From the IMG/VR virus record IMGVR_UViG_3300025470_000019, positions 15,102 to 79,101 of that record: 64,000 nt of DNA; one strand, 5' to 3'. The DNA is from a virus (Duplodnaviria; Caudoviricetes). Shown in pieces: positions 837-38,764 of the stretch. Each line of letters opens with the position of its first letter. Within the stretch, counting starts at the first letter, position 1. Both the position numbers and the translations under genes were made by a program. Under the pieces are notes generated by a model. The model had not been told where the DNA came from. It saw only the letters and a program-made list of their open reading frames with translations, and ran no database searches.

Positions 837-910
837 AAGCTGGTGCTCCTCTTAGCATTAGAGTGGTTGGAAGCGGGAACTTCGCGAACCACAATCATCC
901 TTTATTTATA
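837..910 (-). promoter_or_regulatory. Late promoter plus conserved structured endonuclease leader, copy A
   Basis: Minus strand TATAAATA-aaggatgatt-GTGGTT-CGC-GAAG-ttcccg-CTTC-C-AACCAC-TCTAA-TGCT-aagagg-AGCA-cCAGC-tt-ATG. Confidence 0.85.
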
Positions 911-944
911 TAATTCTAACTTTGAACAGAAAGGAGAGACACCA

Positions 945-1887
945 ATGATACTTGCAAAAGCACCCTTACGTGTCAGTTTTTTTCGGTGGTGGGTCGGATA
1001 TTCCGGCTCACTACCTACAGTGGGGAGGCTCGACCATTTCGACAGCGATCGACAAGTATGTCTATGTCGCTGTAGGTAAGACTCCTCAAAACCACATCAA
1101 GGTCAACTACTCCAAGCAGGAACTGGTGACCAAGGTCGACGATCTTCAAAATGAGATTGTCAAAAATGCCCTGAAGTATTTTGGGATTAAGAACAATATC
1201 GAGATTACCACGTTTGCTGACATTCCTACGGTCGGAACAGGTCTAGCAGGTTCATCGGCATTCACCTGCGCATTGGTCGCTGCTCTTGCAGAATATTGCG
1301 GATTCTCTCGTTATAGCGAATATGAGCTAGCCGAGGCTGCTTGTCAAATTGAAATTCTAATGTGTGGTTGGAATATTGGAAAGCAGGATCAGTATGCTTC
1401 GGCTTTTGGTGGCATGAATTATATTCGCTACCTAAGCAGCGATAAGGTTAATGTCAGTAAGATGGATCCCAACGGAATTGATCACAACATGCTGCTGATT
1501 CCGACGAACATTCAGCGCCATGCTGCTGAGGTCTTGAATAAGATCGACTTCAACGACAAGACTCCAGTCATCAGAGAACTTTCTCACATGGCTGATCTCC
1601 AATATCGTTATGAACCTACTCTTGAGCTTTATGGTCCTCTGCTGAACGAAGCATGGAAATATAAGAAACAGATGGAAGGCGGTATCAGCAATCCAGAGAT
1701 TGATGAGATGTATGAGCGTTGTAGAGAGGCTGGTGCGACTGGAGCGAAACTTCTTGGTGCAGGTGGTGGTGGCTATATGCTGGCTCTGACCGACAACAAG
1801 AATAAGATCAGAGCTGAATTCAACGATAGATGTTGCCTCGAAGTAAGAGTTGCTCTTGACGGAGCCAAGGTTGTTTACAAGGATTGA
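945..1887 (+). CDS. hddA: GHMP-family sugar kinase (HddA-like heptose-7-phosphate kinase), interrupted by one extra T in the T7 run at 977-983
   Basis: MILAKAPLRVSFF (945 frame) continues as FGGGSD in the 952 frame; GTGLAGSS, GKQDQYA and GAKLLGAGGGG motifs; RBS AAGGAG. Confidence 0.85.
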
Positions 1888-1889
1888 CT

Positions 1890-2486
1890 ATGACGAAGCC
1901 ACTGATTAAATTTTCCGATTATACCGATGCTGTGTTTGACGCAATGGAGAGTGTAGATGAACATTCTCTTGCTCTTGTTTATCTAACTCTGAACGAAGCT
2001 CGAGTGAACGGAAGAACTATTTTCGTTTGCGGTAATGGTGGTTCGGCTGCTATTGCTAATCACCTTGTCTGCGACTGTATGAAGGGTGTTGCAGTAGATA
2101 CTGGAAATCATATGCATGTGACTTCGCTGTCTTGTAACGTTCCTTTGATGACTGCCATCGCTAACGATATCGGCTATGAGGATGTGTTTGCAAAGCAGCT
2201 AGAATGGCAAGCTGTTCCTGGGGATGTTTTGATCGCGATTAGCTCTAGCGGCAACTCGCCCAATATCTATAACGCACTTCTTTCGGCCAAGGATGTTGGA
2301 GTTAAGACGATCGCGATTTCTGGATTTACTGGTGGACAGGCTTGTGCTATTGCTGACCACTCTGTCCATATTAAGTCAGATAACTATGGTGTGATCGAAG
2401 ACGTATCTCAGTCGGTGATGCATTATATCGCCCAGTGTCTTCGTCGAAATCTTTCCAATAAGAAACCAGAGGACATCATATACTGA
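1890..2486 (+). CDS. gmhA: Phosphoheptose isomerase (SIS domain)
   Basis: CGNGGSAA, TAIANDIGYE.VF..QL, ISSSGNSPN motifs. Confidence 0.9.
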   Translation: MTKPLIKFSDYTDAVFDAMESVDEHSLALVYLTLNEARVNGRTIFVCGNGGSAAIANHLVCDCMKGVAVDTGNHMHVTSLSCNVPLMTAIANDIGYEDVFAKQLEWQAVPGDVLIAISSSGNSPNIYNALLSAKDVGVKTIAISGFTGGQACAIADHSVHIKSDNYGVIEDVSQSVMHYIAQCLRRNLSNKKPEDIIY

Positions 2487-2962
2487 TGAAGAAGATTGAT
2501 CATGTTTTTCTCGATCTAGATGGGGTTGTGTTCGACTTCCATAGCGCAGTCGGCGATCAGCTCCACGATCGAGAAAAATGGTGGAACGAAGGATTCCCAA
2601 ATTTTATCGAGGCTGGTGGCTTCGCTGATCTGCCTCTGCTGCCCGATGCCGAAGAGCTGATGAATTTTCTTAACGAAAACGTATGGGTCACAATCCTATC
2701 TTCAGCTGGCGGGACTCCTAGGTTTGACGAGATCGTTGATCAGAAACTTGAAGCTCTGCACAGGAACGGAATCGAATATCCAGCGATCATCGTCCCTTCC
2801 AAGGGAGTCAAGAAAGATTTTGCGGGCGAGGGTCGCCTCCTGATTGACGACCATCCTGAGAATTGCCAAAACTTCATCGAGGCTGGTGGTGAGGCTATCG
2901 TCCACATCGACGCTGCAACCACGATAGCTCACATCAAAAAACATTACGAATTTTCAAATTAG
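2486..2962 (+). CDS. HAD-family phosphatase / 5'(3')-deoxyribonucleotidase-like
   Basis: FLDLDGV motif I and LLIDD motif IV. Confidence 0.75.
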   Translation: MKKIDHVFLDLDGVVFDFHSAVGDQLHDREKWWNEGFPNFIEAGGFADLPLLPDAEELMNFLNENVWVTILSSAGGTPRFDEIVDQKLEALHRNGIEYPAIIVPSKGVKKDFAGEGRLLIDDHPENCQNFIEAGGEAIVHIDAATTIAHIKKHYEFSN

Positions 2963-2965
2963 TGC

Positions 2966-2994
2966 TTTACCTTTTTTCAAATCTAGGTTAGAAT
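2966..2994 (+). promoter_or_regulatory. Early promoter, copy 1 of 11
   Basis: TTTACC-17 bp (ttttttcaaatctaggt)-TAGAAT; near-identical copies elsewhere. Confidence 0.85.
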
Positions 2995-3026
2995 GAATTA
3001 TAAGGTTGATTGAAAGGAAGTTTGAA

Positions 3027-3371
3027 ATGATCGTCCAAGTTTTCCACTCTGATCGTGAAATCGGTGGTTTCGTGCATGTCGCTGATATCGATGCCCCTGA
3101 GCATTATGATGCGACTCGTGCCCTCGAGTATGCTTTCCGTCGTACTCAGAACATCGAAGGTTCTTGGTCGATGGGTGAAACCATCGAGTTTGATGGTGAC
3201 ACGATTCCTAACATGGACTATGATGCCAGCATCACTGTCGTCCAACCTCTCCGGACTTGGTCTGACGGTCGTGTGATGGGTCATCGTTCTTCGATGATGT
3301 ATGACCGCATGATTGTTGATGGTGAAAACTACGAAGTCGATGCTTTCGGCTTCCGGAAGCTGGAGGCTTGA
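3027..3371 (+). CDS. Hypothetical early protein
   Basis: ORF behind early promoter with GAAAGGAAG RBS. Confidence 0.7.
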   Translation: MIVQVFHSDREIGGFVHVADIDAPEHYDATRALEYAFRRTQNIEGSWSMGETIEFDGDTIPNMDYDASITVVQPLRTWSDGRVMGHRSSMMYDRMIVDGENYEVDAFGFRKLEA

Positions 3372-3373
3372 TT

Positions 3374-3781
3374 ATGACTAAGATTGTTTACAATGCCTGC
3401 TTTGGTGGCTTCGGGCTCTCGCATGAAGCTGTTATGCGTTATGCCGAGATCAAGGGCATCACTCTTTATGTTAATGAGCAGAAGTGGGGTGGTAATGCCT
3501 ACGCGACTGTTCCTTGGGATGAATATGATCGTATTCACGCTGAGTGCAAAAAGGAACGCAACTATCTTCGTGCGAATGAGCTGTATTTCAGCTATAATGA
3601 TATTGAACGCACCGATCCTGCGCTGGTTCAGGTCGTAGAGGAACTTGGCGATGCGGCTAATGGTGCGCATGCTAAGCTGCGTATCAAGGAGCTTTCGCCT
3701 GGTACTCTTTACCGCATCGATGAGTATGATGGAAGTGAGTCGGTGATGACTCAGGATAACTATGATTGGAGTGTTGCGTGA
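3374..3781 (+). CDS. Conserved hypothetical phage protein
   Basis: KIVYNACFGGFGLS...RTDPALVQVVEELG...IDEYDG pattern. Confidence 0.75.
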   Translation: MTKIVYNACFGGFGLSHEAVMRYAEIKGITLYVNEQKWGGNAYATVPWDEYDRIHAECKKERNYLRANELYFSYNDIERTDPALVQVVEELGDAANGAHAKLRIKELSPGTLYRIDEYDGSESVMTQDNYDWSVA

Positions 3782-4185
3782 ACTACGAATTTCCTAACAT
3801 CTACAACATCGATGACGTACTGTGGGCTATCGAAGGTCGCGATGAGTTCGTCGTTGCCGAGAAGGAAGGATACACTGTCATCAACTACAACGTGATGATG
3901 GCTGATACGTTTCCTGATGTGATCATTGATGCTGATCCTTATGATCAAGCTTCTGGTGTGGTTGAGCAGCAGGACTATAACGCAGCAATTCGCCGTGAAT
4001 GTAGAGGTCTGATATTCGACTCGAAGACTGGTGAAATCCTTCGTCGCCCTTTCCACAAGTTCTTCAATGTGAATGAGCGCGAAGAGACTCAGGATCATGT
4101 CATTAATCTGTCGCGTCCTCATGCTATCCAGAAGAAGTGCAGGTTGCTATTCCTGTATTTCGCGTTGGTCAAATGGGTCCACTAA
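3778..4185 (+). pseudogene. N-terminal fragment of an Rnl1-like RNA ligase
   Basis: YTVINY, RRECRGLIFD, PFHKFFNVNE motifs; similarity stops before the KxDG adenylation motif. Confidence 0.7.
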
Positions 4186-4406
4186 GCACCGTTCCGGTGG
4201 AACATATTCATCTTGGAATTGACTGGGACAGCAATACCCTGTTTATTACTCCAAAAGGAGACGAATTGCGCGAAATCAATGTAGACGAGATTTCAGCTAT
4301 CATGAAAAAGTATGACGAACTTTGCTGGACTGAATACAAGATTTCCAAGATCAAGCGTGAAAACGAAGCTCTAAAGAAGAAGTTGAAGGAACTTGAAAAT
4401 GATTAA
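4128..4406 (+). pseudogene. Hypothetical protein, apparently N-terminally truncated
   Basis: Frame PEEVQVAIPVF...GIDWDSNTL opens without RBS, overlapping the ligase fragment. Confidence 0.5.
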
Positions 4407-4653
4407 CTTTGATATTCTTGGTAAGGCTATTAAAGATGTTGCCGGGTATGCTGCAATTGGAGTTGGAGCCGCTTTGGCAGGGATCACATTTGGTGGTTTG
4501 CTTATATACCTTGCAAGCAAATTTGGATTTATAGTTTTCCCAATCATTTGTTGTTTGTTTTTTCTTGGGATGGGCATCGTCTCTCGTTACGAACATCATA
4601 CTAGATTGGATCAGGAATCCAAGAAAAAGATGATGGAAGTTTTGACACGATGA
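4399..4653 (+). CDS. Small two-TM membrane protein
   Basis: Two hydrophobic segments; stop/start coupling with neighbours. Confidence 0.65.
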   Translation: MINFDILGKAIKDVAGYAAIGVGAALAGITFGGLLIYLASKFGFIVFPIICCLFFLGMGIVSRYEHHTRLDQESKKKMMEVLTR

Positions 4654-4823
4654 GTTTCCAGCTTCCGCCCGTAAGATGGGAACCTGTAAAAATACCGAAC
4701 GGTGGAAAAACCACGTTTGATGAAATGCGTGAGGGACTGAGTGAGGAACTTTACCGTCAAGGTGATGCCATTCTTGTTTGGGTAAACGAGGGAGACATAC
4801 TATGGCATACGCTTGCAAAATGA
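4650..4823 (+). CDS. Small hypothetical protein (57 aa, below ORF-track cutoff)
   Basis: ATGA overlap with previous stop; MSFQLPPVRWEP... Confidence 0.5.
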   Translation: MSFQLPPVRWEPVKIPNGGKTTFDEMREGLSEELYRQGDAILVWVNEGDILWHTLAK

Positions 4824-4951
4824 CTAAGGATTAACAATGGAACTACTTAAAGAAAATAGCCACGACCTATCAGAAGTTTCCGCAGAACGTGATAGACATA
4901 TGGCCACATTAGATATATGGTCGCTTGCACGAAAGAGACAGGAACTTGAAA

Positions 4952-5131
4952 ATGACTGAAGATCGGGCAACAGTTCTCCTTAATGCTGTTTTGGAAATCC
5001 TTAACAAGTGCGACGAAGGTCCATATGTTAAGGAATTCTTTGGTGAAACTGCTTTTTATGATGGTACTGATTGTGATGGATATTGTCTAAAAGACGATAT
5101 CGAACATTTTTTGGAGTATGGTGATGCCTAA
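4952..5131 (+). CDS. Small acidic hypothetical protein
   Basis: ORF in co-oriented early cluster. Confidence 0.6.
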   Translation: MTEDRATVLLNAVLEILNKCDEGPYVKEFFGETAFYDGTDCDGYCLKDDIEHFLEYGDA

Positions 5132-9571: not shown

Positions 9572-9884
9572 TTCATTCTTTGAACCAGAAATGGTGAACG
9601 AAGTCCAGACGCTGGATGAGAAGATCAAACAGCGTAGGACGCAAATGCTGATACATTCCTATCGGTATTATGTCCTAGACGACCCTGTGATCACTGACGA
9701 AAAGTGGCAACAGTGGGCTGATGAGTTGGTCGAGCTTCAAAAGCGAAAGCTGAAGATTGGCTTCTACGATAAAGAATTCTCTGACTGGACTGGTGCTACT
9801 GGAATGCATCTTCCATTCGATAAGTGGATTAGAGACAAGGTAAAATACCTAAATAAAATATCAGTTGTTGACAATCAACAATAA
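9561..9884 (+). CDS. Protein resembling the N-terminal domain of NAD-dependent DNA ligase
   Basis: HSYRYYVLDDPVITDEKW...ELVELQ pattern. Confidence 0.65.
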   Translation: MTLDSFFEPEMVNEVQTLDEKIKQRRTQMLIHSYRYYVLDDPVITDEKWQQWADELVELQKRKLKIGFYDKEFSDWTGATGMHLPFDKWIRDKVKYLNKISVVDNQQ

Positions 9885-10217
9885 AGGCGGAAAGACTGGG
9901 GTTCGACTCCCCACACCTCCACCATCATTCATTACCTTTGTGGTGCCTGCTGGGCAGCAATGGCTTTCTCGGTTACTCGTAAGTGATCATAACGGTAACT
10001 GTGGATAGTGAAAAGGTCTCCTAGCGCAAGGAGATACCCAACGTGATGGATGATGATGGGGGTGAACTGGGATCGATTTTCGTGTAATAGGGCGATCGAG
10101 ACTGATTCGGTGGTCGAGCGACCAAAAACAATAAATGCTAACGATAACGAAAGCATTGCTCTAGCTGCATAAGCTAGACTAGGGTTCGGTGGGTACCTCG
10201 TAACAGAAACCCACCAC
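9862..10217 (+). ncRNA. ssrA: Permuted (two-piece) tmRNA: acceptor piece ends CCA at 9924, coding piece starts at 10058
   Basis: T-arm GGGGTTCGACTCCCC plus CACCTCCACCA precede GGGGGTG; the strands form an acceptor stem with G3.U70; tag ANDNESIALAA-stop at 10137-10172. The 5' end is approximate. Confidence 0.9.
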
Positions 10218-10221
10218 TTAT

Positions 10222-10258: not shown

Positions 10259-10290
10259 GATAAATAAAACATAAGGATAAGATATGTTTT
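10259..10290 (+). promoter_or_regulatory. Late promoter with RBS/ATG-sequestering hairpin
   Basis: gATAAATA overlapping AAAACATA-aggataaga-TATGTTTT; the stem covers the ATG and the loop holds the RBS. Confidence 0.75.
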
Positions 10291-10919
10291 ATACAATATA
10301 TTCGATAACAAATTTATCAGATGGCAAAATATATATCGGAAAGCATAAAACCAATAATTTAGATGATGGTTATATGGGTTCTGGTACACTGATTCGTAGA
10401 GCCATTTCTAAACATGGTATCGAAAACTTTAAAAAAGAAATTTTATTCGTTTTCGATAACAAAAACGAAATGGACTTAAAAGAAAAAGAATTAGTCAATG
10501 AAAATTTTGTTTTGTCTACGTTAACCTACAACTTATCTTTAGGTGGAAAAGGTGGGTGGAATCCTAGTAAATCTAAAGTCGCATTTCTTGGAAAAAAGCA
10601 TTCCGAAGAAAGTAGAAAACGAATAGGTGAAGCTAGTAGGAATAGAATTCATTCACCAGAATCCAAAAAGAAAATGAGTGATTCTCGTAGGGGTGTCTCA
10701 AAACCCAATACATCTATTTCTCTTAAAGGAAAAATGAAAACAGATGAACATAAAAAGAAAATAAGTGAATCGCTGAAAAATAGAGATCCTAAAAAAGTTC
10801 CTAAGGGTTATAAAAGAAAATCTAAACAGATATGGATCAATAACGGAGAATATTCTACCAGAATTAACTCAGAGTTGTTGATTCCAAACGGATTCATCAA
10901 AGGAAGATTAAAGAAATAG
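10284..10919 (+). mobile_element. Free-standing GIY-YIG (Seg-like) endonuclease with NUMOD3 repeats, in the tRNA cluster
   Basis: TIYSITNLSDGKIYIGKH, YMGSG, KHSEESRKRI and HSPESKKKMS repeats. Confidence 0.85.
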
Positions 10920-10920
10920 T

Positions 10921-10996
10921 TGCTCTCTGGTGCAATTGGCAGCACGTCTGACTCTGACTCAGAAGGTTCCAGGTTCGACCCCTGGGAGAGCATCCA
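10921..10996 (+). tRNA. tRNA-Gln(CTG)
   Basis: Cloverleaf; TCTGA-CTCTGAC-TCAGA anticodon arm; U1-A72; encoded CCA. Confidence 0.9.
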
Positions 10997-11005
10997 ATTT
11001 TTTAG

Positions 11006-11034
11006 TTGACATCACAGTCAACACCGTGTATAAT
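11006..11034 (+). promoter_or_regulatory. Consensus sigma70 promoter upstream of tRNA-Gln(TTG)
   Basis: TTGACA-17 bp-TATAAT. Confidence 0.8.
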
Positions 11035-11051
11035 ACGAAAACAATTTACAT

Positions 11052-11125
11052 TGCCCCTTCCTCTAATGGTAAGAGAGCGGACTTTGAATCCGTCAATCTT
11101 GGTTCGAATCCAGTCGGGGGATCCA
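11052..11125 (+). tRNA. tRNA-Gln(TTG), mismatched, probably chimeric
   Basis: GCGGA-CTTTGAA-TCCGT anticodon arm, TTCGAAT T-loop, CCA; mismatches G2:G71, U7:C66, C49:U65. Confidence 0.7.
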
Positions 11126-12967: not shown

Positions 12968-13918
12968 ATGTCAAACTTTGCATCTCTTAAGAATTCGAGC
13001 CAAGATTCTCTCCGTAAGCTGACCGAACAGGTTAGCAAGATGACCTCCCCATCGGGCGGTAAGGAAGAAGAAGCCAACAAGTTCTGGAAGGCTACCGTCG
13101 ATAAGACTGGTAACGGCTCGGCAATCCTTCGCTTTCTCCCTGCACCTGACGGTGAAGATGTTCCTTTCGTTCGTTTCTGGGACCATGGTTTCCAGGGACC
13201 AACCGGAAAGTGGTATATCGAGAAGTCGCGCACTTCGCTCGGCGAGAAGGATCCTGTAGCTGAATACAACTCGAAGCTGTGGCGCGAATCTGATAATGAT
13301 GATTCTCCGCAGCGCAAGCAGGCTCGCAAGCAGAAGCGTCGCGAGCATTTCGTTGCCAATATTCTCGTTGTCAAGGATCCTGCTAATCCTGAAAACAACG
13401 GCAAGGTCTTCCTCTACGATTTCGGTAAGAAGATTTTCAATAAGCTCAACGAACTGATGCATCCGATCGATGACGGTATCGAAGAAGTTAAGGCGATCGA
13501 TCCATTTAATATGTGGTCGGGTGCTGACTTCTACCTTCGCATTCGTAACGTCGATGGCTACCGTAACTACGACAAGTCGAGCTTCGGTGATCAGAAGGCA
13601 ATCAGTGATGACGATGACGCTCTTGAAGCTATCTGGAAGTCTGAGCATTCGCTGAAGGATTTCGTTGACCCTAAGAACTACAAGTCGTTCGAGGATCTCG
13701 AAAAGCGTCTGAACGAAGTTCTTGACCTCAATACTCATATCCGTCGCACTGATGAGCCTATGGCTCGTGCTGAGGCTCCTGTCCAAAAGACAGCCCAGCC
13801 AGCTGCTTCTACCTTTGACGTTGAAGAAGATGATGTTCCTTGGAGCAACTCTAGTGCAGCTACGACCGAAGAAGACGATGACATGTCGTTTTTTCGCCGA
13901 CTAGCCGAGGAAGATTGA
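12968..13918 (+). CDS. gp32: Single-stranded DNA-binding protein gp32
   Basis: GNGSAILRFLPAP, HGFQGPTGKWYIE, GKVFLY.FGKKIF, YRNYDKS.F, acidic tail. Confidence 0.95.
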   Translation: MSNFASLKNSSQDSLRKLTEQVSKMTSPSGGKEEEANKFWKATVDKTGNGSAILRFLPAPDGEDVPFVRFWDHGFQGPTGKWYIEKSRTSLGEKDPVAEYNSKLWRESDNDDSPQRKQARKQKRREHFVANILVVKDPANPENNGKVFLYDFGKKIFNKLNELMHPIDDGIEEVKAIDPFNMWSGADFYLRIRNVDGYRNYDKSSFGDQKAISDDDDALEAIWKSEHSLKDFVDPKNYKSFEDLEKRLNEVLDLNTHIRRTDEPMARAEAPVQKTAQPAASTFDVEEDDVPWSNSSAATTEEDDDMSFFRRLAEED

Positions 13919-13919: not shown

Positions 13920-14516
13920 TTAGTCTAACTGGGATAGATGTTTATTTGATTTTAGATGTCTATCCCAGTTCATACTACCTTTAATAGACCTTGCACAAAC
14001 TTTACAATGATTAACAACCCTATTTTTTGCGGACTCTGATAATTTTTTCTTTGTTGCTTCTGAATGTTTAATTCCAACCGTTCTTTTTAGGTTCTCATGA
14101 ACAGGCTTGCCTTTCAATCTATTTGATCTTTCTTTCTTGGCCTGTTCTGAGTGTTTACATCCTTTTGGTTTTCCTTTTATCATTGGCAAACCAAGGACGA
14201 GTCTCACTTCGTTTGTCATGCCCTTTGTGTGGCTCCAAGAACCGTGGCCTCCAACTGTCATGTTATACGTGTCATCTCTGCGTATAAAGGCATCATTGAC
14301 AATCTGAGATTCTTTCAGATACATATCTTCTTCGGAATCCAAATAAAATAGTATTGTTTTTGTGAAAGATTCTACACCATATTTTTTTATAGCGGACTTT
14401 ATTGCGGTTCCTGAACCCATATATCTATCTTGTGGATTATGCGTTTTATGTGAACCTACATATATTTTATCATTGACTTTATTTTTGACTTCATATACAG
14501 TATAATAAATAGGCAT
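13920..14516 (-). mobile_element. Free-standing GIY-YIG endonuclease with NUMOD3 repeats and C-terminal Zn finger
   Basis: TVYEVKNKVNDKIYVGSH, YMGSG, HSEQAK/HSEATK, CKVC...H...H. Confidence 0.85.
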
Positions 14517-14586
14517 GCTGATTCTCCTACCATAGAGTTAGAGTGACTGGATACAGGAATATCGCGAGTCACATAAAATTATTTAG
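14517..14586 (-). promoter_or_regulatory. Late promoter plus conserved structured endonuclease leader, copy F
   Basis: CTAAATA-attttat-GTGACT-CGC-GATA-ttcctg-TATC-C-AGTCAC-TCTAA-ctctatggtaggagaa-tCAGC-ATG. Confidence 0.85.
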
Positions 14587-14609
14587 TAAAACAAGACTAA
14601 ATAACGAGC

Positions 14610-14663
14610 TAGTCGGGGAGGAAACCTTTCTTCCTTTCAAATCCTCCCCGACGAACAACTAAC
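14610..14663 (+). ncRNA. Candidate hairpin sRNA (tRNA-Ser leader) with an anti-RBS loop
   Basis: CTAAATA at 14597; perfect 11-bp stem 14612-14622/14642-14652; loop AACCTTTCTTCCTTTCAAA. Confidence 0.55.
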
Positions 14664-14753
14664 GGAGGTGTGGCAGAGCTTGGTTTATTGCACCTGACTT
14701 GAAATCAGACGTACTGAAAGGTACCGTGGGTTCGAATCCTACCACCTCCGCCA
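14664..14753 (+). tRNA. tRNA-Ser(TGA)
   Basis: GGAGGTG/CACCTCC acceptor stem, long variable arm, CTTGAAA loop, G73-CCA. Confidence 0.9.
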
Positions 14754-14781
14754 TCTATTTTAATAATATTAATAATTTTAT

Positions 14782-14855
14782 TGCCCTTTCGTCTAGCGGT
14801 AGGACCTCGCACTTTGACTGCGAAGACCGAGGTTCGAATCCTCGCGGGGCATCCA
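14782..14855 (+). tRNA. tRNA-Gln(TTG)
   Basis: TCGCA-CTTTGAC-TGCGA anticodon arm; CGAGG-TTCGAAT-CCTCG T-arm; U1-A72; CCA. Confidence 0.9.
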
Positions 14856-14870: not shown

Positions 14871-15290
14871 ATGGCAAAAGCAATTCTTGAAGAAATTGAA
14901 TTCAAAAACGATCTTGGTCAGACCATCAAGCCTGGAGACGAAGTCGTAATTGTTACCACTGGCTATAGCCATAGCGTTTCGACCAACAAGGGAACATATG
15001 TTGGCATGGTCAATGGTGGCGCATCTATTGTAAAGCAGGTCAAGACTTCTTACTATGCATTTAAGAGTAATGGCGAGAGGGTTCCACGCTCTTGGTGGAA
15101 TGAAATGTATGCTGAACAGCGTGCCTTGGTATCAGATGGACGCAATGCTGATAAAAACTATCGCTACTGGGCTGATCCTCAATATAAGGAAATTCAAGAG
15201 AAGCGTTATGCTCTTATCGAAAAGAAGTATGAAATCTTCCCACGGAAGACGACTCTGAAACTGAACCGAGCATATAAGCTCGCAGCCTAA
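14871..15290 (+). CDS. Hypothetical protein
   Basis: ORF with AGGAG RBS. Confidence 0.7.
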   Translation: MAKAILEEIEFKNDLGQTIKPGDEVVIVTTGYSHSVSTNKGTYVGMVNGGASIVKQVKTSYYAFKSNGERVPRSWWNEMYAEQRALVSDGRNADKNYRYWADPQYKEIQEKRYALIEKKYEIFPRKTTLKLNRAYKLAA

Positions 15291-18875: not shown

Positions 18876-19547
18876 TTAAGTAATTTTTGGTGGCACTCCA
18901 GGAACATATGGTGGAATATTTCCTGGGTTATTCACTGGGGTTGTTTCGTTTTGTAATTGTCCAGTAATTGGAGCTGGTGTCTGTCTAGGAGTTGCGTCCT
19001 GAACACCAGAGACAGCTCCAACAGTTTCTGTATAGTAGAAGTATGCAAACGTGACAGGAATAGAGATCATGCTGTTTCTAGCTGCCCAGCTGAAAGGTAC
19101 TGAGCCGATCGTTTCAGGAAACGCCAAAGAAAAATGCCAGTTCGCGATCTTTCTGCCATACGTATCGTACTGAATCAAATCCATATCTGATGAGTAGTTG
19201 GTTCTATATTGGACTTGCTGAAGATTTTTACCGTGTGTGTCAAACAGAAGATCAGCCCAAGAATTGAGTAGCTTCAGATTGTCTGCTCTCGCATCGCAGT
19301 AAACAGAAACGTTCAGTCTCTCGAATCTAGCGCCAACAACATATGGCTGTCTGAAGCCTTGACCTAGACGAGCAATCTCGACAGTCTCTGCGCTTCTTGA
19401 AGGTAGAGTGGCAGAGTGGCAAAGCAGCGATAGCTTTTTGCCGTCTCCTTTGAGGATGCTAGGAAGCGTGATCAGTAATTCAAAGTGAGCTTCTCTTGCG
19501 AATCCCTCAACATTATTCTGAATAAATTCGTTGATATTAAAAGCCAC
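18876..19547 (-). CDS. Tail-tube-family protein (gp54-like initiator); probable GTG start at 19547
   Basis: LCHSATLP, PY, L.VSVYCD, W, FSLAFP..IG, IPVTF.Y.YY pattern. Confidence 0.65.
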   Translation of the reverse strand: MAFNINEFIQNNVEGFAREAHFELLITLPSILKGDGKKLSLLCHSATLPSRSAETVEIARLGQGFRQPYVVGARFERLNVSVYCDARADNLKLLNSWADLLFDTHGKNLQQVQYRTNYSSDMDLIQYDTYGRKIANWHFSLAFPETIGSVPFSWAARNSMISIPVTFAYFYYTETVGAVSGVQDATPRQTPAPITGQLQNETTPVNNPGNIPPYVPGVPPKIT

Positions 19548-20139
19548 TTCTTGAATCCTTCCAAACGGTGCTCGTTGATGCTTTCTGGAATTTCTGCGTT
19601 GGTAGAAACAAAGCAGTGTCCCAATCTTTCGGTTCCACATAAATGAACCTAGACTTAACTTGATTGGTCAAATAATGTTTAAAGCATGGCTTAAACAGAG
19701 CCAAATTCGAAGCACCTTTCAAAGTCTGGTAGCTGATATTTAGTTTGGTTGAGTCATCATATTTTTGATTATTCGTTACAGTGTATAACGCATCCATAAG
19801 ACGAGCTCTTAATACTGGCTGGAGGTAATGTAGGTTCAGACCATAGAACCCATTATCCGCTGGACCAACCATAAAGATTAGAGGGAAAGCGTCCCAGTAT
19901 GGTAGTTTCTCTTTGTGTTTGGCATCATAGACATACATATACATACGTCCAGGAAGAACCTTGTCCGAGAGAGTCGCACCCTCAAAGAACTTATTCTGTT
20001 GGAGTCTTGGTCCTCTGTAATCAGCAGCTTTTCTACGGAACCAATCTCGAGCATCTTTCGTTTTGTTTGGCACAATGTTCTGCGCAGCCGCACGTTTGAG
20101 CACGCTGCTATAGACATATTGTTCGGTTGTTTGTGCCAC
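19537..20139 (-). CDS. gp2: DNA end protector gp2
   Basis: PGRMYMYVYDAKHKEKLPYWD.FPL, GLNLHYL, FKPCFKHYL. Confidence 0.9.
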   Translation of the reverse strand: MAQTTEQYVYSSVLKRAAAQNIVPNKTKDARDWFRRKAADYRGPRLQQNKFFEGATLSDKVLPGRMYMYVYDAKHKEKLPYWDAFPLIFMVGPADNGFYGLNLHYLQPVLRARLMDALYTVTNNQKYDDSTKLNISYQTLKGASNLALFKPCFKHYLTNQVKSRFIYVEPKDWDTALFLPTQKFQKASTSTVWKDSRSGF

Positions 20140-20152
20140 AAATATTCCTTTT

Positions 20153-20216
20153 TATAAATAGATGGTAGTCGCGGATGGCGGTCCCACTACCACTAATACT
20201 AACTGGAGTATCAGCT
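20153..20216 (+). promoter_or_regulatory. Late promoter plus conserved structured endonuclease leader, copy D
   Basis: TATAAATA-gat-GGTAGT-CGC-GGAT-ggcg-GTCC-C-ACTACC-ACTAA-TACT-aactgg-AGTA-tCAGC-t-ATG. Confidence 0.85.
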
Positions 20217-20765
20217 ATGATATATTTATATATTAAACAACACCAAAAAACTGGTCTGAAATATTTCGGAAAAACCGTAAAAGCCAATCCATTCAAATAT
20301 AATGGTTCAGGCAGTTATTGGTATAAACATCTAAAAGAACATGGAAAACACATTAGAACCATAGAAATATGGGGGTTCGATGACCAACAGTTGTGCACAC
20401 AATTTGCTTTAAAATTTTCTAAAGACAATAATATAGTAGAATCTAAAGAATGGGCGAATTTAGTCCCTGAAGATGGTATAAGTGGAGGCAGCATCGGTAG
20501 CCGTAAAGGAAGAAAATTATCAGAACAAACAAAAGCAAAAATGTCTAAAACTAGAAAAGGATACAAATATGGTCCTGAGTTTGCAGAAAGATTTAGACAA
20601 AGATTATTAGGTGTTCCTAAAACTGAAGAACAAAAACGCAAAATGCGCTTGGCAAAATTAGGCAAACCTCAATCCGAAGAACACAAAATGAAACGATCGG
20701 AAGCTATGAAACGAGCACACGCTATTAAAAAGTTATCCCTAAATCTTTCTCAGTTACGATCTTAA
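20217..20765 (+). mobile_element. Free-standing GIY-YIG-variant endonuclease with NUMOD3 repeats
   Basis: IYLYIKQH..TGLKYFGKT, YNGSG.YW..HL, WANL.PE.G; true ATG at 20217 after GGAG. Confidence 0.85.
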
Positions 20766-21159
20766 ACTGCCAGCCTCTGTCGTCACAGAATCTTTTAGCG
20801 GCATCCCATTTTGCTTGATTTATAAGATATGTGCTAACCTCGGTCAAATACCTTCTGGTTTGTCTCGCTTTCTTTGCTGGTGGTCTTGTCTGAGCGTCAG
20901 GCTTAATTTCAAAAACGAATCTATCACCATTAACGTTCTCAGCATAAATATCAGGAAAGTATCTATGCAGTTTGTTATCAATAGGACTTAGGTATGGAAT
21001 AGAGAATTCTTCTGATGCCCAGCGAGTTATATTCGGGTCGGCATCAAGACGAACGAATAGCCTCTGTTCCCAACTACTCCTATAAATAATGTTGTTAGGA
21101 TTCCCAATATACTTCTCAGGATTCTTTGGGATAAATCGTCCTTTGTATGTTTTGAACAT
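20725..21159 (-). CDS. gp4: Head completion nuclease gp4
   Basis: YKGRFIPKNPEKY.G....I.YRSSWE, WASEE..IPY.SP.D...HRYFPD, EIKP. Confidence 0.9.
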   Translation of the reverse strand: MFKTYKGRFIPKNPEKYIGNPNNIIYRSSWEQRLFVRLDADPNITRWASEEFSIPYLSPIDNKLHRYFPDIYAENVNGDRFVFEIKPDAQTRPPAKKARQTRRYLTEVSTYLINQAKWDAAKRFCDDRGWQFKIVTEKDLGITF

Positions 21160-29188: not shown

Positions 29189-29206
29189 TATTAGAATCCT
29201 TTTTAC

Positions 29207-29271
29207 CTAAATAAAAGTGGTTCGCGATGTACCACCATCCAACCACACTAACGTCACTGGAGACAATCAGC
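29207..29271 (+). promoter_or_regulatory. Late promoter plus conserved structured endonuclease leader, copy C
   Basis: CTAAATA-aaa-GTGGTT-CGC-GATG-taccac-CATC-C-AACCAC-ACTAA-cGTC-actgga-GACaa-tCAGC-ATG. Confidence 0.85.
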
Positions 29272-29916
29272 ATGATTATTTATCTTTATGTAAAACGCCA
29301 TAAAATTACTGGTCTGAAATATTTTGGTAAAACCATACAAAATCCATGGATTTATCCTGGATCGGGCAAATATTGGAACCGACATCTAAAAGTCCACGAA
29401 AACAATGTTGAGACTATAGAAGTTTGGGGATTTGACGATCAAATTTTATGTTGTGAGTTTGCGCAAAAATATTCAAAATTACATAATATCGTTGAATCCA
29501 AAGATTGGGCCAACCTCATTCCGGAAACAGGAACTGATGGAGGATTTACTACATCTAGAGAACAACAAAAGAAAATTTGGGAAAATTCAGCTTTGCGCGA
29601 AAAACACCATAACAGCATAAAACGCTCATGGACTGAAAAACGAAAAGTGATCGCTTCAAATAATACATCAGAACAATGGAAACGTCAGGATAAATCTTTA
29701 ATAGCAGAAAAAATGGTCAAAACCAAAAAAGAAAAATACCCTGACGGTAATCCAAATGTGGGCGTTTATGTAAGAACGGAAGAAATTAAACACAAAATGA
29801 AACTTGCGGCTAAAGAACGAGATTTAATCAAGATAGTTTGCGAACAATGTTCGAAAGAATCTAATAGATCTAATTATGCTCGCTGGCACGGATCTAATTG
29901 CAAAACTTTACGCTAG
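29272..29916 (+). mobile_element. Free-standing GIY-YIG-variant endonuclease with C-terminal Zn ribbon
   Basis: IIYLYVKRH.ITGLKYFGKT, YPGSGKYW.RHL, WANLIPE.G, CEQC...RWH..NC. Confidence 0.85.
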
Positions 29917-34342: not shown

Positions 34343-34367
34343 TTAAAGTCTCCATTCCTTATTATTC

Positions 34368-34396: not shown

Positions 34397-34413
34397 GTGA
34401 AAAATTCTTTTGA

Positions 34414-34482
34414 TATAAATATGAATGTGGTTCGCGATGCGTCAACATCCAACCACTCTAACGCTTACAAGGAGCATCAGCC
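34414..34482 (+). promoter_or_regulatory. Late promoter plus conserved structured endonuclease leader, copy B
   Basis: TATAAATA-tgaat-GTGGTT-CGC-GATG-cgtcaa-CATC-C-AACCAC-TCTAA-cGCT-tacaagg-AGCa-tCAGC-c-ATG. Confidence 0.85.
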
Positions 34483-35034
34483 ATGGCTATTTATAGAAAA
34501 ATCTACGAACGACATTTTGGACCAATCCCTAAAGAAGAAAACGGTCGCACTTTCGAGATACACCATATAGATGGGGATCGGACTAATAACAGCATCAATA
34601 ACCTTAGATGCGTTTCCATTGAAGAACATTATAATATTCATTACGCCCAACAAGATTGGGGTGCATGCGGGGCGATCGCACAAAGAATGAATTTGTCGTT
34701 GGACAAAATTTCCAATCTAAGAAGCAAACATGCATTAGCAAGAGTAGCCGACGGAACAAATCCATTCTTAATCCTAAGTAAAATTAGATCTGAAAATGGA
34801 ACTCATAATTGGATGACTGAACAACATTCAGAAAAAACAAGAGAGCGCCAAATTTCTAGATTAGAACTCGGGGATCACGAATTTTGTAAACGATCTGTTT
34901 GCCCTTACTGTGATAAGGAAGGGCAGTATGCCGTAATGGCCAGATGGCATTTCAATAATTGTAAATTGAATCCAAACTACACATCAAAACCCAAAAGAAA
35001 ATATAAAAAGAAACGGCTGAATCAGACCACCTAG
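34483..35034 (+). mobile_element. Free-standing HNH endonuclease with C-terminal Zn ribbon
   Basis: EIHHIDGDRTNNSINNLRCVSIEEH; CPYC...RWHFNNC. Confidence 0.85.
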
Positions 35035-35100
35035 GGAATTTACTTCTCATTTAAGAGAAACCCAATATACGAACGTCCATTCGAGATTCAGCCGCTCAGT
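35005..35100 (-). ncRNA. Candidate ~90-nt ncRNA under an early promoter
   Basis: 10-bp terminal stem CGGCTGAATC/GATTCAGCCG enclosing two hairpins, then a U-rich tail; no ORF with RBS. Confidence 0.55.
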
Positions 35101-35106
35101 AAACTC

Positions 35107-35135
35107 ATTCTAACCTAGAATTTTAATTAAGTAAA
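35107..35135 (-). promoter_or_regulatory. Early promoter, copy 10
   Basis: TTTACT-17-TAGAAT. Confidence 0.8.
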
Positions 35136-35214
35136 GCATTAATATGCCAGCTCATAGAAGCGAAGACCACAAGCCACACGCGAACGGAGCAGCTTGGCGC
35201 GGAATACAATAGGA

Positions 35215-35724
35215 CTAAGCACCCTCGCCTACGAACCAAGGCTTAGTGGGATCGTGGCGAGTAAGCCACTTCTGATAGAGCCCTACTTCCATGCCATATG
35301 CGATAATCTCCCAAGGGCTGTCAAAATAGTGGTCCTCATTGCGCTTGGGCTTCCAGATCTCGCCCATCCAACGGCTGGTCATCTTCAGCCCACCCTTGGT
35401 GGGGATCATGATGCCTCCCTGCAGCTCATTCTTAGCATGCTGCTTCACATGAACCATCTCGTGACCGAGGGTCTTGATCATTTCCTCAATGTCCTGCTTG
35501 CGCAGCCCGATGGTGAACCAGCGAGGGTTGCGGGTGCCTTCCTCGTCGACGCACTCGCCCATAACATCAAGGGTCTTGCTCACCTCAATGTCGATATTGA
35601 GATTGCGGACCAAACGTGGATCCATGAGCTGAGCTGCAAAGAAGCGAGCAGCCTCCTCCAGCTTTGCCTTATCGCGCTTGCCGAGACCAGTGACCGTGAG
35701 ATTCATATCAGACTCCATTCCCAT
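35215..35724 (-). CDS. HExxH metallopeptidase-like early protein
   Basis: TLGHEMVHVKQ...PWEIIAY. Confidence 0.7.
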   Translation of the reverse strand: MGMESDMNLTVTGLGKRDKAKLEEAARFFAAQLMDPRLVRNLNIDIEVSKTLDVMGECVDEEGTRNPRWFTIGLRKQDIEEMIKTLGHEMVHVKQHAKNELQGGIMIPTKGGLKMTSRWMGEIWKPKRNEDHYFDSPWEIIAYGMEVGLYQKWLTRHDPTKPWFVGEGA

Positions 35725-35729
35725 TCCTC

Positions 35730-35758
35730 ATTCTAACCTAGATTGGAAAAAAAGGAAA
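35730..35758 (-). promoter_or_regulatory. Early promoter, copy 11
   Basis: TTTCCT-17-TAGAAT. Confidence 0.8.
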
Positions 35759-35785
35759 GCATTATCTTTGGTACAAATCAGTGAG

Positions 35786-37594
35786 TTAGGCTATCGCAGT
35801 AACAAAGGTGTTGTTTGCGGTTCCGTCCAGACAAAAATACTTGACATACATTGTGTTATGAGAACTGAGATAGAACGACGATCCGCCTGTGGCTTGTGTT
35901 GAGGCAACACCATGATTAAACTGCTGAGTTCCGCCAACATTATTGAAGATAAACAGTTCAACAGATTTTCCGGCAGTCAGGTTTTGGAGATTGGCAGTAA
36001 CTGTGCCTTGGTTTGTGTGAATATGAACAAAGTTATCTGTCGAGAAATCGATCAATACTGTGTTCGAAACTACGTTAGCAATTCTAACATTAGGAGCTTT
36101 GTATGCTGTATTTTGGTGAGAACCATCAGTAAAAGTAATGCCAGCATTTGAATTTGGGTTATTAACAAAACTCATTCCATTCGCATAAAATGCAACTGTT
36201 TCGTTTTGTATGGTGTTGGAACCTGTAGGCGTCAACTGGAAAGTAATTTTTGTTCCTGTATTGGCAGTATAAAAATCTTCGGCTGCCATCATATTGATGC
36301 GTCCAATAGAACCAGCGTATGTGTTACCGTCGGCTGTCCATCCTTGCATACTCATACGAATAATCGTGTCGTTTGCTTGAGTTTGTGTAGGCGAAACAAC
36401 AGTTCCGCGTGCTCCGCGCCCAGCAATTGCTGCGTAAGTGTTTGGGCCAAACGCATCAATACTGATACGAGCGGGTTGACCATCTTGCGCCGTTGCTTGT
36501 AATAATGTGCCATTATAGTTGCGCGGTTGCGCTACGCCAGAATTTGATCCAACAATAGATAGAGCAGAGTTCGTAGTTAATATTGTATTTGGAGTATGAA
36601 TCTGCACTTGACCGGTTCTATCGACAGCAAATGTGGGATTAGAATTTGTTCCTGTAGAATAAACAACAATAGGTCTATTGATAACAAGATTACCAGTAGC
36701 AGCAGTAGAACCAATATAGAATACTGCATTCGAATCTGTAAGACCAATAAAATTGTTTTGTAGTAAGAAATTACCTACTCTAAATCCAGCATTTGATTGT
36801 TCTGAAGTATTTGCTGATGTTGAGATGAAAAATACACCATTTGATACAGTCAATCTTTGATCTGGATAAGATGTATTTTGATCAGAGAAAATAATTGAAT
36901 TTGAGCCAACCCACATCGATTCCCAACGATTTGTTGTGTTGCCAAGAGAATATACTCCATTTGTGCTAGGAATAATACTTGATGGGACATGCAGCCAGTC
37001 AACAGTAGTGGTAACATTCGCGAATTCAAATTTCTTTACGTCAGTATTATAACGCAGAAACATATTGTTTGCGATACTGTTTCTGTCAACGTCATCAAGA
37101 TATCTCAGCTTGACTTCACCACCACCAGCAACGACTCCTGAAGCATTGCGGGCAAACCTATGCAGGTCAGCCAGAGTCTTCTTCATTAGGTCTATTTCTT
37201 TTCGAATACTATTCGGAATAGAATCGGTCTTGGCTACATATTCATCACGAGGAATCTTGGACAGAAGTTCAACTGACTTGGTGATTATATCTTTCTGTGG
37301 AAACTGTGGCATTGGCTGAGCACCAAGAGGAATAGCAACAGGCTCCTCGAGGATGATAGGTTCGACAAACTCATCCATTGATTCAACCAGAGCTTCGTGT
37401 AGGGATTCACTCTGCTGCTCTGTGATAATGGCTTTTTCTAGCTGTATCTCTTCGGGAGTGGGAAGTGCATCATTACGTTTGAGGTATTGTTCCAGTGCAC
37501 TGGCAGTCTGCCTGCGTTGTTGATCCGCAAGCATCTTTTCCTCATGCTTCTGTCTCGCAGCTCTGATACTTTCTAGGAAGATGTTATCTTTCAT
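35786..37594 (-). CDS. Virion/tail-fibre-like structural protein
   Basis: GGGEVKLRYLDDVD motif, beta-rich N/T/S/G body, late promoter (TATTTATA at 37622). Confidence 0.6.
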   Translation of the reverse strand: MKDNIFLESIRAARQKHEEKMLADQQRRQTASALEQYLKRNDALPTPEEIQLEKAIITEQQSESLHEALVESMDEFVEPIILEEPVAIPLGAQPMPQFPQKDIITKSVELLSKIPRDEYVAKTDSIPNSIRKEIDLMKKTLADLHRFARNASGVVAGGGEVKLRYLDDVDRNSIANNMFLRYNTDVKKFEFANVTTTVDWLHVPSSIIPSTNGVYSLGNTTNRWESMWVGSNSIIFSDQNTSYPDQRLTVSNGVFFISTSANTSEQSNAGFRVGNFLLQNNFIGLTDSNAVFYIGSTAATGNLVINRPIVVYSTGTNSNPTFAVDRTGQVQIHTPNTILTTNSALSIVGSNSGVAQPRNYNGTLLQATAQDGQPARISIDAFGPNTYAAIAGRGARGTVVSPTQTQANDTIIRMSMQGWTADGNTYAGSIGRINMMAAEDFYTANTGTKITFQLTPTGSNTIQNETVAFYANGMSFVNNPNSNAGITFTDGSHQNTAYKAPNVRIANVVSNTVLIDFSTDNFVHIHTNQGTVTANLQNLTAGKSVELFIFNNVGGTQQFNHGVASTQATGGSSFYLSSHNTMYVKYFCLDGTANNTFVTAIA

Positions 37595-37673
37595 ATCAAT
37601 TCCTTTAGGGGATATCCGGTCTATTTATAATTCCCCAGCACAAACCTAAATATAAGAAACTGCGGAGACATGA

Positions 37674-38078
37674 ATGGCCAATTCACCGATTCAACAACAG
37701 ACATTCTACTCGGATTTTCTCTTTGACTTCAAGAGGAATCCTGCCACTCATGACATCCTTACTGTAACAAATGAGCAGTCTGTTATTAACTCTATCAAGA
37801 AGATTCTCCGCACAAACAATTATGAAGTGCCATACAATCCTCGCTTCGGTGCCAATATTTACCATTATCTTTTTGAGCCATTTACAGAGTTTACACAGGA
37901 TGCGTTAGAGAAAGAAATTACATATGCAATCGAGGCATATGAACCAAGGGCGAATCTAATCAGTGTAACTGTTACTGGCAGTCCTGACGAGAACAGTATC
38001 GACATCACCATTGTTGTGTCGGTAATAAATAATCCAAACCCAATAACAGTTACAACAACACTCAGCAGGATTCGCTAA
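37674..38078 (+). CDS. gp25: Baseplate wedge subunit gp25
   Basis: YSDF..DF..NP...D, SIK.IL.TN..E.PY.P.FG.NI...LFE, YEPR. Confidence 0.9.
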   Translation: MANSPIQQQTFYSDFLFDFKRNPATHDILTVTNEQSVINSIKKILRTNNYEVPYNPRFGANIYHYLFEPFTEFTQDALEKEITYAIEAYEPRANLISVTVTGSPDENSIDITIVVSVINNPNPITVTTTLSRIR

Positions 38079-38688
38079 ACCTGCGTTTCTGAGACTCTCT
38101 CATTTTGAGTTTGGTCTCTTCAGTATGCGGCTTACGTTTCTTACCTTTTTGTGATTCAGATATTTTCTTTCTGGTGTATTCAGAGTGTTTACACCCAGTG
38201 CGAGAATTTCTCATCTTATTTCTTGTCTCTTTAGAAACAATTTTGTTTTTTTGTGATTCTGAATTTTTGAGTTTAGATTCTTCAGACACAGGAGCTCTAG
38301 TTTCCCAAGCTATGCGCATTTTGAATTTTGTTTCCTCAGAGCGTTTCTTTCCTGTTGCCGATTCTCTTATTTTTCTTCTGTGGTCCTCGGATAGTATTGT
38401 TCCATTTGGAGTGCCACTCAACCCATTTTCTTCTATCATATTAGCCCATTCGTCGGACTCAACAATATTGTTCTGTTTTGAGAAATTTAAAGCAAACTCT
38501 GTACATTTTTCTTGTTCATCAAACTCATACAATTCAATTGTGTTGATGTGTTCAATTCCATATTTCTTAACGTGCCTAAGCCAATACTTACCCGACCCTG
38601 TGTAAGTATATGGATTCTCTCTAATAGTTTTGCCAAAATACTTCAGACCCGTTATGGCATGCTGCTTAACGTACAGATAAATAATCAT
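38062..38688 (-). mobile_element. Free-standing GIY-YIG-variant endonuclease with NUMOD3 repeats
   Basis: IIYLYVKQH.ITGLKYFGKT, YTGSGKYW.RH, WANM.EE.G, HSEYTRKKIS. Confidence 0.85.
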
Positions 38689-38764
38689 AGCTGGTTCTCC
38701 TTACTGGGCTAGAGGTAGTGGGTTTCTTGCCGGTCACCGCGACTACCAGTTATTTATATAAATA
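38689..38764 (-). promoter_or_regulatory. Late promoter plus conserved structured endonuclease leader, copy E; palindromic bidirectional late box
   Basis: TATAAATA-act-GGTAGT-CGC-GGT-gaccggcaagaa-ACC-C-ACTACC-TCTAG...GGAGaa-cCAGC-t-ATG; TATTTATATAAATA at 38751-38764. Confidence 0.85.

Follow-up and report, generated by a model that had tools for sequence, protein, structure and literature searches.

A two-box cassette ahead of homing endonuclease genes in a T4-like phage, and the RNA predicted from its antisense strand

The DNA considered here is a 64,000-nucleotide stretch (positions 15,102 to 79,101) of IMG/VR virus record IMGVR_UViG_3300025470_000019, referred to below as the window. It derives from a distant, uncultured T4-like myovirus, whose gp5-like protein shares 34% identity with its counterpart in Caulobacter phage Cr30, and it carries six copies of a compact structured element, each ahead of a homing endonuclease gene. 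These genes belong to unrelated catalytic families, which raises the question of what the shared element does and on which DNA strand its fold is encoded. The obvious reading is that of a leader in the nuclease messenger RNA (mRNA), and an earlier note on this DNA described the element in that way. The analysis below retains the element and its link to the nucleases, and moves the fold to the other strand.

The cassette, its relatives and its second box

All six copies that the earlier note had listed, with their strands and their P1 and P2 sequences, are found again by reading the sequence and with a strict regular expression. The expression detects only these six in the window and no seventh in the whole 79-kb viral contig. 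On the sense strand, that of the nuclease gene, each copy starts with a TAAATA box, followed after 3-10 nucleotides (nt) by a 6-base-pair (bp) helix, P1, which encloses CGC, a short hairpin (P2) and a C. Downstream of P1 come WCTAR, a small hairpin (P3) over the Shine-Dalgarno (SD) sequence, CAGC, 0-2 nt and the ATG. Four of the genes behind the copies are of the phrog_314/GIY-YIG/NUMOD3 type, one is an HNH_3 gene and one gives no hidden Markov model (HMM) match. The last can be classed as GIY-YIG-type by homology only, and with this proviso the reported set of five GIY-YIG genes and one HNH gene is correct.

When a covariance model is made from copies 1, 2, 4 and 5, the two left out, 3 and 6, are detected with E values of 3.5e-9 and 1.5e-5, respectively; the next match in the window has E = 0.16. 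Rfam 15 yields no match at the six copies on either strand, at the gathering score or at E<=10. The hammerhead, twister, pistol and hatchet ribozymes, the kink-turn and tRNA-like minihelices were also considered and rejected, as their core motifs are lacking. We note that an automated catalogue of 8,495 IMG/VR RNA candidates (PMC10690425) may already include the motif, unnamed.

Further copies are readily found in viral sequences, and these too are tied to endonuclease genes. A scan of IMG/VR with a loose IUPAC pattern gives at least 120 loci; among the 120 listed, 69 hold 73 true copies. Covariance models find 62 copies in the first 99 loci (L001-L099) and 15 in the following ones (L100-L120), including some outside the pattern, for example with CAC in place of CGC. 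In total, 82 distinct copies were collected, namely the six of the window and 76 more from T4-like relatives, one of which is the cultured phage Cr30. The same pattern applied to 596 Gb of cellular genomes produces no true copy, by regular expression or by model, among the 120 matches listed, compared with the 73 in the viral pattern loci (120 listed). When two copies are compared by BLAST with 50,697 cultured phage records, only short, chance-level matches result, and megablast of structural genes returns none.

The open reading frames (ORFs) downstream of the copies contain NUMOD3 (22 copies), HNH_3 (6), HNH (6), HNH_5 (5), GIY-YIG (5), SegE (3) and I-TevI DNA-binding (1) domains, and almost every copy stands ahead of a GIY-YIG/NUMOD3 or HNH gene. 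The cassette is thus genuinely and generally associated with homing endonucleases whose catalytic families are unrelated. The copy in Cr30 (locus L126, 1519-1618; KF301602 136918-137017) lies directly ahead of an annotated homing endonuclease; the fold is present, with a longer hairpin A (described below), and the start region reads CCAGC A ATG GAT ACTTAT.

The cassette extends beyond the ATG at which the earlier description ended. The downstream proteins nearly all begin with MxIY, MYL or MIFI, and the nucleotide motif beneath is TATTTA(T), which is kept in codons 2-4 of all six window genes. Read on the opposite strand, TATTTA becomes TAAATA, the core of the late box; it follows the ATG in 62 of 81 copies, with TACTTA in 11 more. 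The motif persists across three different reading frames (61, 13 and 3 copies), and the spacer between CAGC and ATG compensates for its position, being 0 nt where the motif begins 2 nt past the ATG and 1-2 nt where it abuts the ATG. This compensation implies that the distance from the outward-facing box to the core is held at about 5 nt; measured to GCUG, the edge of the core on the outward strand, it is 5 nt in 52/81 copies and 4-6 nt in 72/81. On the other side, the sense box stands 5 nt from P1 in 48/81 copies. The matching distances indicate that the core is bracketed by two convergent boxes with equal spacing. Overall, two NTAAATA boxes about 65-70 bp apart enclose a core of about 55 nt, giving a cassette of about 85 bases.

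The outward box is present in all six window copies. It is retained in 13/13 copies that lie co-directionally behind another gene, in 46/56 copies antiparallel to their neighbor and in most copies that have no sense box, and its retention is thus independent of a neighbor to serve or of a partner box. Structural genes of the phage, the gp6-like and gp25-like ones among them, likewise have NTAAATA boxes in front, which supports the box as the late promoter of the phage. In T4, late transcription starts about 6 nt after TATAAATA. By this rule P1 would supply the first base of the sense RNA, and the outward RNA would begin with the G of GCUG.

Strand of the covarying fold

On the outward strand, which is antisense to the nuclease gene, the core forms two hairpins. 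Hairpin A consists of CUGR paired with YUAG plus a stem of 3-4 bp, and its loop is the complement of the SD of the nuclease gene. Hairpin B forms a helix of 11-12 bp from which two G residues bulge. A pseudoknot between the P2 loop and CAGC was considered and rejected for want of consistent complementarity.

The compensatory stem changes described from the six copies are real, and they become massive once the relatives are added. In the model alignment, 13 of the 14 pairs recognized earlier vary on both sides, and 93% of cells are paired, against 25-49% with slid partners. The antisense strands of the 82 distinct copies were also aligned with MAFFT, without fitting to structure. Here 95.9% of 1543 cells are paired (99.3% in hairpin B), compared with 29-48% for slid partners; both-sided change is seen in 14/19 pairs, and none of 500 shuffles reaches any of the five measures.

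The types of the remaining pairs distinguish the two strands, as what reads as A.C in the sense direction is G.U in the antisense direction. Counted for 19 pairs across 65 distinct copies, the sense cells comprise 1079 Watson-Crick, 136 A.C, 3 G.U and 8 others, and for the earlier 14 pairs 3 G.U compare with 53 A.C cells and 8 other mismatches. No pair in the sense reading displays a one-sided change such as G-C to G.U. The earlier statement that G.U pairs favor the sense strand thus fails.

The energies point the same way. RNAalifold applied to 65 rows with flanks gives -22.3 kcal/mol for the antisense strand (structure conservation index, SCI, 1.04) and -13.6 for the sense strand (SCI 0.81). 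On the antisense strand only, it adds pairing of a lone G with the middle C of GCG, and of CUGR with YUAG via an invariant G.U. These segments are the reverse complements of C, CGC, YCAG and CTAR, so each of the segments that had been described as fixed and unpaired (CGC, C, WCTAR and CAGC) finds a partner on the antisense strand. The CAC variants of CGC produce a G.U on the antisense strand only, and the R/Y pair of CTAR and YCAG, which the search pattern left unconstrained, is A-U, G-C or sense A.C, and never sense G.U. For single sequences, the minimum free energy (MFE) is lower on the antisense strand in 63/66 copies (p=3e-12), including all six window copies (-15.2 to -19.5 vs -11.0 to -16.3 kcal/mol). 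Because wobble statistics, RNAalifold and single-sequence energies all agree, the fold is placed on the antisense strand, and the selected structure very probably belongs to the outward RNA. This would be a clear case of a strand assignment by wobble pairs overturning the obvious reading as a "leader".

A sense-strand translational operator or switch at the 5' end of a late nuclease mRNA, possibly one that binds a protein or ligand, is improbable in this light. The sense box does set the predicted +1 on the opening base of P1, the P3 loop holds the SD, the orientation of the element to the ORF is fixed, and the sense RNA still forms P1, P2 and P3 with 88% of cells paired. Such an operator would, however, have to live with 136 A.C cells for 3 G.U and with the weaker fold in 63 of 66 copies, and the frame-independent TATTTA box would be left unexplained. 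Furthermore, the "conserved unpaired" bases behind the idea of a binding pocket pair on the other strand, and once this is seen no observation speaks for a sense leader that binds a ligand or protein, or for an RNA that partners the nucleases. Of the earlier proposal, the portable RNA module shared by two unrelated endonuclease families survives, and the sense strand, together with the mechanism built on it, is given up on the strength of wobble pairs, RNAalifold and energies.

The composition of the pairs also bears on action as DNA, either as a one-strand hairpin or cruciform or as a recombination module that shuffles the 5' ends of endonuclease genes. The pairs are nearly pure Watson-Crick, G.T is the best tolerated DNA mismatch, and the leaders resemble one another without regard to ORF family (copies 1, 4 and 5 vs 3 and 6). 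Nevertheless, a recombination module predicts identity and not compensatory stem transversions, the boundaries of the element match predicted transcription starts on both sides, and no nuclease family found here is known to need DNA hairpins. We consider a DNA-level element very improbable.

Predicted transcripts and their possible roles

The scheme that we propose builds on the portable two-box cassette, the covarying two-hairpin outward fold and its complementarity to the 5' untranslated region (UTR) of the nuclease mRNA, all of which are evident at the level of sequence. The inward late box would drive the nuclease gene, and the outward late box in codons 2-4 would also fire late, yielding a structured RNA fully complementary to the nuclease 5' UTR, including the SD and AUG. 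By pairing with the nuclease mRNA, this RNA would lower translation of a potentially harmful nuclease. Since no terminator is evident and the neighboring genes are close and mostly head-to-head, the same transcript probably runs on as the hairpin-capped late leader of the neighboring gene. That the cassette consists of convergent late promoters making an antisense RNA that represses the nuclease is, in our judgment, an evenly balanced proposition.

Several points weigh against this scheme or the strand on which it is built. The promoters, the RNA ends and the antisense RNA are themselves inferred. The sequences are akin, and the cell counts therefore exceed the number of independent events; estimated by eye, at least 15 such events give an antisense G.U, against one or two that give a sense G.U. 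The search pattern fixed three of the four CUGR/YUAG pairs, the invariance of which is thus partly ascertainment. The pairs are overwhelmingly Watson-Crick and the sense RNA is almost as able to fold; both strands, or the DNA, may be under some constraint. The outward box is TACTTA in eleven copies and no good box is present in eight, and the Cr30 copy lacks TAAATA on both sides (sense side GCTAATTAAT). Finally, a simple terminator scan flags none of the cassettes, and hairpin B with its tail scores below 0 in 82/82 copies by a d'Aubenton-Carafa-type terminator score. On this outcome, a discrete small RNA is no more than possible.

Hairpin B carries its two bulges at a mean free energy (dG) of -10.3 over 30 nt, and it is followed by a U-rich tail (mean 6 U in 10 nt) that is mostly offset by AC. 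We rejected it as a rho-independent terminator on account of the bulged stem, the offset tail and the negative score. The U tract kept in loci L064, L089 and L054 was likewise rejected as support for termination, as it is the -35/UP region of the neighbor's sigma70-like promoter.

Antisense control of a mobile element's enzyme has well-known parallels. P22 sar RNA acts on ant by an antisense logic similar to that of IS10 RNA-OUT, and bulged stems are typical of antisense RNAs of this kind. IS10 RNA-OUT is a 69-nt antisense RNA with a promoter inside the 5' end of the transposase gene; it blocks ribosome binding and accounts for multi-copy inhibition (PMC5006887). As in these systems, the outward promoter, here a predicted one, lies within the 5' end of the regulated gene and converges on the promoter of that gene. 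The predicted antisense RNA has a stable fold that is conserved, and it is complementary to the SD/AUG region, with a predicted overlap from P1 to CAGC that includes the SD. As with IS10, several copies in one genome could cross-inhibit. The cassette differs in that its promoters are T4-type late boxes, its RNA has two hairpins and not one, its overlap of about 55 nt covers the whole 5' UTR, and it is without an evident terminator; it has no sequence or structure homology to either RNA.

The T-even homing endonuclease genes, namely those for I-TevI, for I-TevII and for I-TevIII, plus segB and Aeh1 mobE, are expressed from late promoters and have hairpins that sequester the ribosome binding site (RBS) (PMC2988022). 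The cassette shares with them the late promoter immediately upstream and an RNA structure around the RBS, which in the T-even genes limits expression to a low, late level. In those genes, a single hairpin both sequesters the SD and encloses the late start. The late box of the cassette stands outside the fold, and most of the SD falls in the loop of a 3-4 bp stem; on this point the earlier note was right to call the design distinct from a simple I-TevI-type hairpin. The sense box is situated about 5 nt upstream of the whole fold, so that the predicted late RNA keeps the fold intact. The selection of the fold on the opposite strand and the second, convergent box set the cassette further apart.

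The logic of I-TevI and T4 gene e could still be realized through the boxes themselves. In read-through RNA, AUAAAUA would pair with UAUUUAU of codons 2-4 and close a three-way junction, hiding the start region; late-box transcripts would be without one arm and hence translated. Each box is the exact reverse complement of the other, the two are placed symmetrically about the core, and the principle is an established one in I-TevI, segB, mobE, e and soc (PMC2988022). However, the helix would comprise only 7 all-A/U bp and be weak, one box varies without compensation in the other (CTAAATA or GTAAATA upstream, TATTTAC downstream), and the downstream box is kept in copies that have no upstream box. 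Most cassettes are antiparallel to their neighbors, so sense read-through should be rare, and the antisense wobble bias of the core would go unexplained. We regard this box-box helix as decidedly improbable.

An antisense RNA over the 5' part of a free-standing homing endonuclease gene has been detected experimentally in cyanophage S-PM2, where this RNA, CfrI, is about 225 nt long and linked to psbA (Millard et al. 2010, as described in PMC2984593), features that the cassette does not share. No other antisense RNA is known to have been reported across a homing endonuclease gene of a T4-like phage, and no cassette common to the two is known to have been described. The covariance model has no match in the whole S-PM2 genome (AJ630128), which includes the CfrI locus, or in Melnitz-3 or BUCT-ZZ01.

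The lack of a canonical terminator is equally what one would expect if the outward box and fold served the phage. A late promoter with a 5' hairpin leader would then restore and stabilize late expression of a neighbor interrupted by the antiparallel insertion, and the complementarity to the nuclease leader would be incidental. By crude ORF calls, 56/78 cassettes are head-to-head with an opposite-strand gene that starts 12-236 nt beyond the fold, 13/78 follow a co-directional gene with its stop inside the sense box, and 9/78 are unclear. Many of the head-to-head neighbors begin 12-60 nt past the fold, with no space for a late box of their own and too near the cassette for any intervening promoter; only 13 of the 56 have their own TAAATA between cassette and start. 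Cassettes also persist where the nuclease gene is truncated or undetectable (L016 and L092), and there is a T4 precedent in the seg and mob genes, which embed promoters for downstream genes and thereby favor retention of the element (PMC2988022). Those T4 promoters are co-oriented and have no conserved RNA fold, unlike the backward-facing box in codons 2-4, which is part of a conserved portable cassette.

The gp4/gp2 junction provides the most detailed comparison. No cassette is found at this junction in 80 loci of gp2 homologues from relatives. In the two closest cassette-free relatives (L247, 2073-3139, and L248), the gp4-like and gp2-like genes overlap by TAATG, and TATAAATA lies inside gp4, about 90 nt ahead of gp2. 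In the window (19537-21159), the nuclease gene splits the gp4-like and gp2-like genes, overlapping the gp4 3' end tail-to-tail by 41 nt, and the outward box of cassette 3 is positioned 91 nt ahead of the GTG start of the gp2-like gene (at 20139). The outward box thus replaces the native late box at the same distance of about 90 nt.

Against a purely phage-serving role, all 13 co-directional cassettes have the outward box, although their RNA would merely be antisense to the upstream gene. In addition, many neighbors have their own sigma70-like or late promoter just past the cassette, gene 38798 has a late box of its own, and a plain stabilizer would need neither two hairpins nor fixed bulges nor an invariant G.U. 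We therefore hold this explanation to be possible and rather doubtful.

The two roles may also be combined. In a bifunctional, "rent-paying" module, the outward late RNA would repress the nuclease and at the same time re-promote and stabilize the neighboring phage gene. Repression would operate in cis and also in trans among the copies of one genome, like multi-copy inhibition. We put this forward only tentatively. If true, it would account for the association of one mobile cassette with unrelated nuclease families, for the ability of such nucleases to insert antiparallel in late operons, and for the survival of cassettes whose nuclease genes have decayed.

Taken on the sequence evidence, the element is best described as a two-promoter cassette, folded on the antisense strand, for the putative control of homing endonucleases. 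It is a new RNA family, not in Rfam 15, and putatively a novel form of cis-antisense control over the nuclease of a mobile element. It would add a phage RNA family to those that Rfam 15 covers. How free-standing homing endonucleases are restrained and fitted into phage transcription is known from no more than a handful of T-even cases, each a hairpin on the sense strand, and a widespread, portable two-promoter cassette that folds on the antisense strand would, if confirmed, represent a new regulatory principle for these enzymes. The presence of a copy in cultured Cr30 makes the proposal directly testable.

The window copies and their surroundings

The positions of the six cassettes, their boxes and the genes behind them are collected in Table 1.

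Table 1. Cassettes and associated homing endonuclease genes in the window; MFE values in kcal/mol, antisense vs sense
Feature	Position (strand)	Parts or assignment	MFE
Cassette 1	824..910 (+)	outward box TATAAATA 824-831(+); core 839-892; sense box 903-910(-)	
Cassette 1 core	839-892	two hairpins on + strand	-18.3 vs -14.9
GIY-YIG homing endonuclease gene behind cassette 1	141..836 (-)	PF01541 9.5e-7; phrog_314	
Cassette 2	14504..14587 (+)	outward box AATAAATA 14504-14511(+); core 14517-14572; sense box ACTAAATA 14580-14587(-)	-15.2 vs -14.3
GIY-YIG/SegE-like homing endonuclease gene behind cassette 2	13920..14516 (-)	profile matches	
Cassette 3	20153..20230 (-)	sense box 20153-20160(+); core 20164-20215; outward box TATAAATA 20223-20230(-)	-17.7 vs -16.3
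GIY-YIG-type/NUMOD3 homing endonuclease gene behind cassette 3	20217..20765 (+)	antiparallel between gp4-like and gp2-like genes	
Cassette 4	29206..29284 (-)	sense box CCTAAATA 29206-29213(+); core 29217-29271; outward box GATAAATA 29277-29284(-)	-19.2 vs -13.6
Endonuclease gene behind cassette 4	29272..29916 (+)	no HMM match; 54% identity over 112 aa to gene 38062-38688	
Cassette 5	34414..34495 (-)	sense box 34414-34421(+); core 34427-34481; outward box TATAAATA 34488-34495(-)	-19.5 vs -14.2
HNH_3 homing endonuclease gene behind cassette 5	34483..35034 (+)	PF13392 5.3e-14	
Cassette 6	38676..38758 (+)	outward box GATAAATA 38676-38683(+); core 38690-38747; sense box 38751-38758(-)	-17.7 vs -11.0
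GIY-YIG-type/NUMOD3 homing endonuclease gene behind cassette 6	38062..38688 (-)	antiparallel between gp25-like and gp6-like baseplate genes	

All six window cassettes are head-to-head with a neighbor. In order, the neighbors are a sugar-cluster gene, a tRNA cluster, the gp2-like gene, an S-adenosylmethionine (SAM)-decarboxylase-like gene, an unknown gene and the gp6-like gene. Three of the nuclease genes lie antiparallel inside blocks of genes on the other strand. Among the relatives, sigma70-like promoters (TTGACA, about 17 nt, TATAAT-like) of the divergent neighbor adjoin the cassettes in loci L058, L032, L050, L064, L089, L101, L066 and L067, which indicates that many cassettes stand back-to-back with early promoters.

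The similarity among the window leaders does not track the ORF family. Cassettes 1 and 4 (GIY-YIG-type) and cassette 5 (HNH) have the same P1, GTGGTT, and cassettes 4 and 5 also have the same P2. The protein of copy 4 is homologous to those of copies 3 and 6, whose common P1 differs from that of copy 4. This pattern suggests that the 5' module has been exchanged near codon 4 among endonuclease genes.

In some relatives, the nuclease gene itself is decayed. In locus L016 (1441-1645), the cassette is followed by a 49-residue GIY-YIG remnant, and in L092 (1158-1249) by an ORF of 11 residues without detectable nuclease homology; the nuclease remnants of L009 and L027 are frameshifted. The cassette can, it appears, outlive its own nuclease gene.

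The nuclease gene behind cassette 2 is tail-to-tail with a gp32-like gene (12968-13918(+)), and the Cr30 nuclease gene is arranged tail-to-tail with gp32 in the same way. Beside cassette 2, at 14596-14663 (+), the + strand carries a late box, ACTAAATA, and after it, immediately ahead of the tRNA gene at 14664, a GC-rich hairpin. At cassette 6, the sense box and the + strand late box of the gp6-like gene (38757-38764) overlap as a perfect palindrome (ATTTATATAAAT, 38751-38764), which corresponds to back-to-back late promoters.

A permuted (alpha-type) transfer-messenger RNA (tmRNA) gene (RF04321, 104 bits; RF01849, 81 bits) and four tRNA genes are located at 9825-10218 (+), 10921-11122 and 14664-14852. 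Co-oriented with the tmRNA and tRNA genes is a GIY-YIG-type ORF (10284-10919) that has no cassette; it is preceded by two late boxes (10247 and 10259), 25-37 nt ahead of its ATG.

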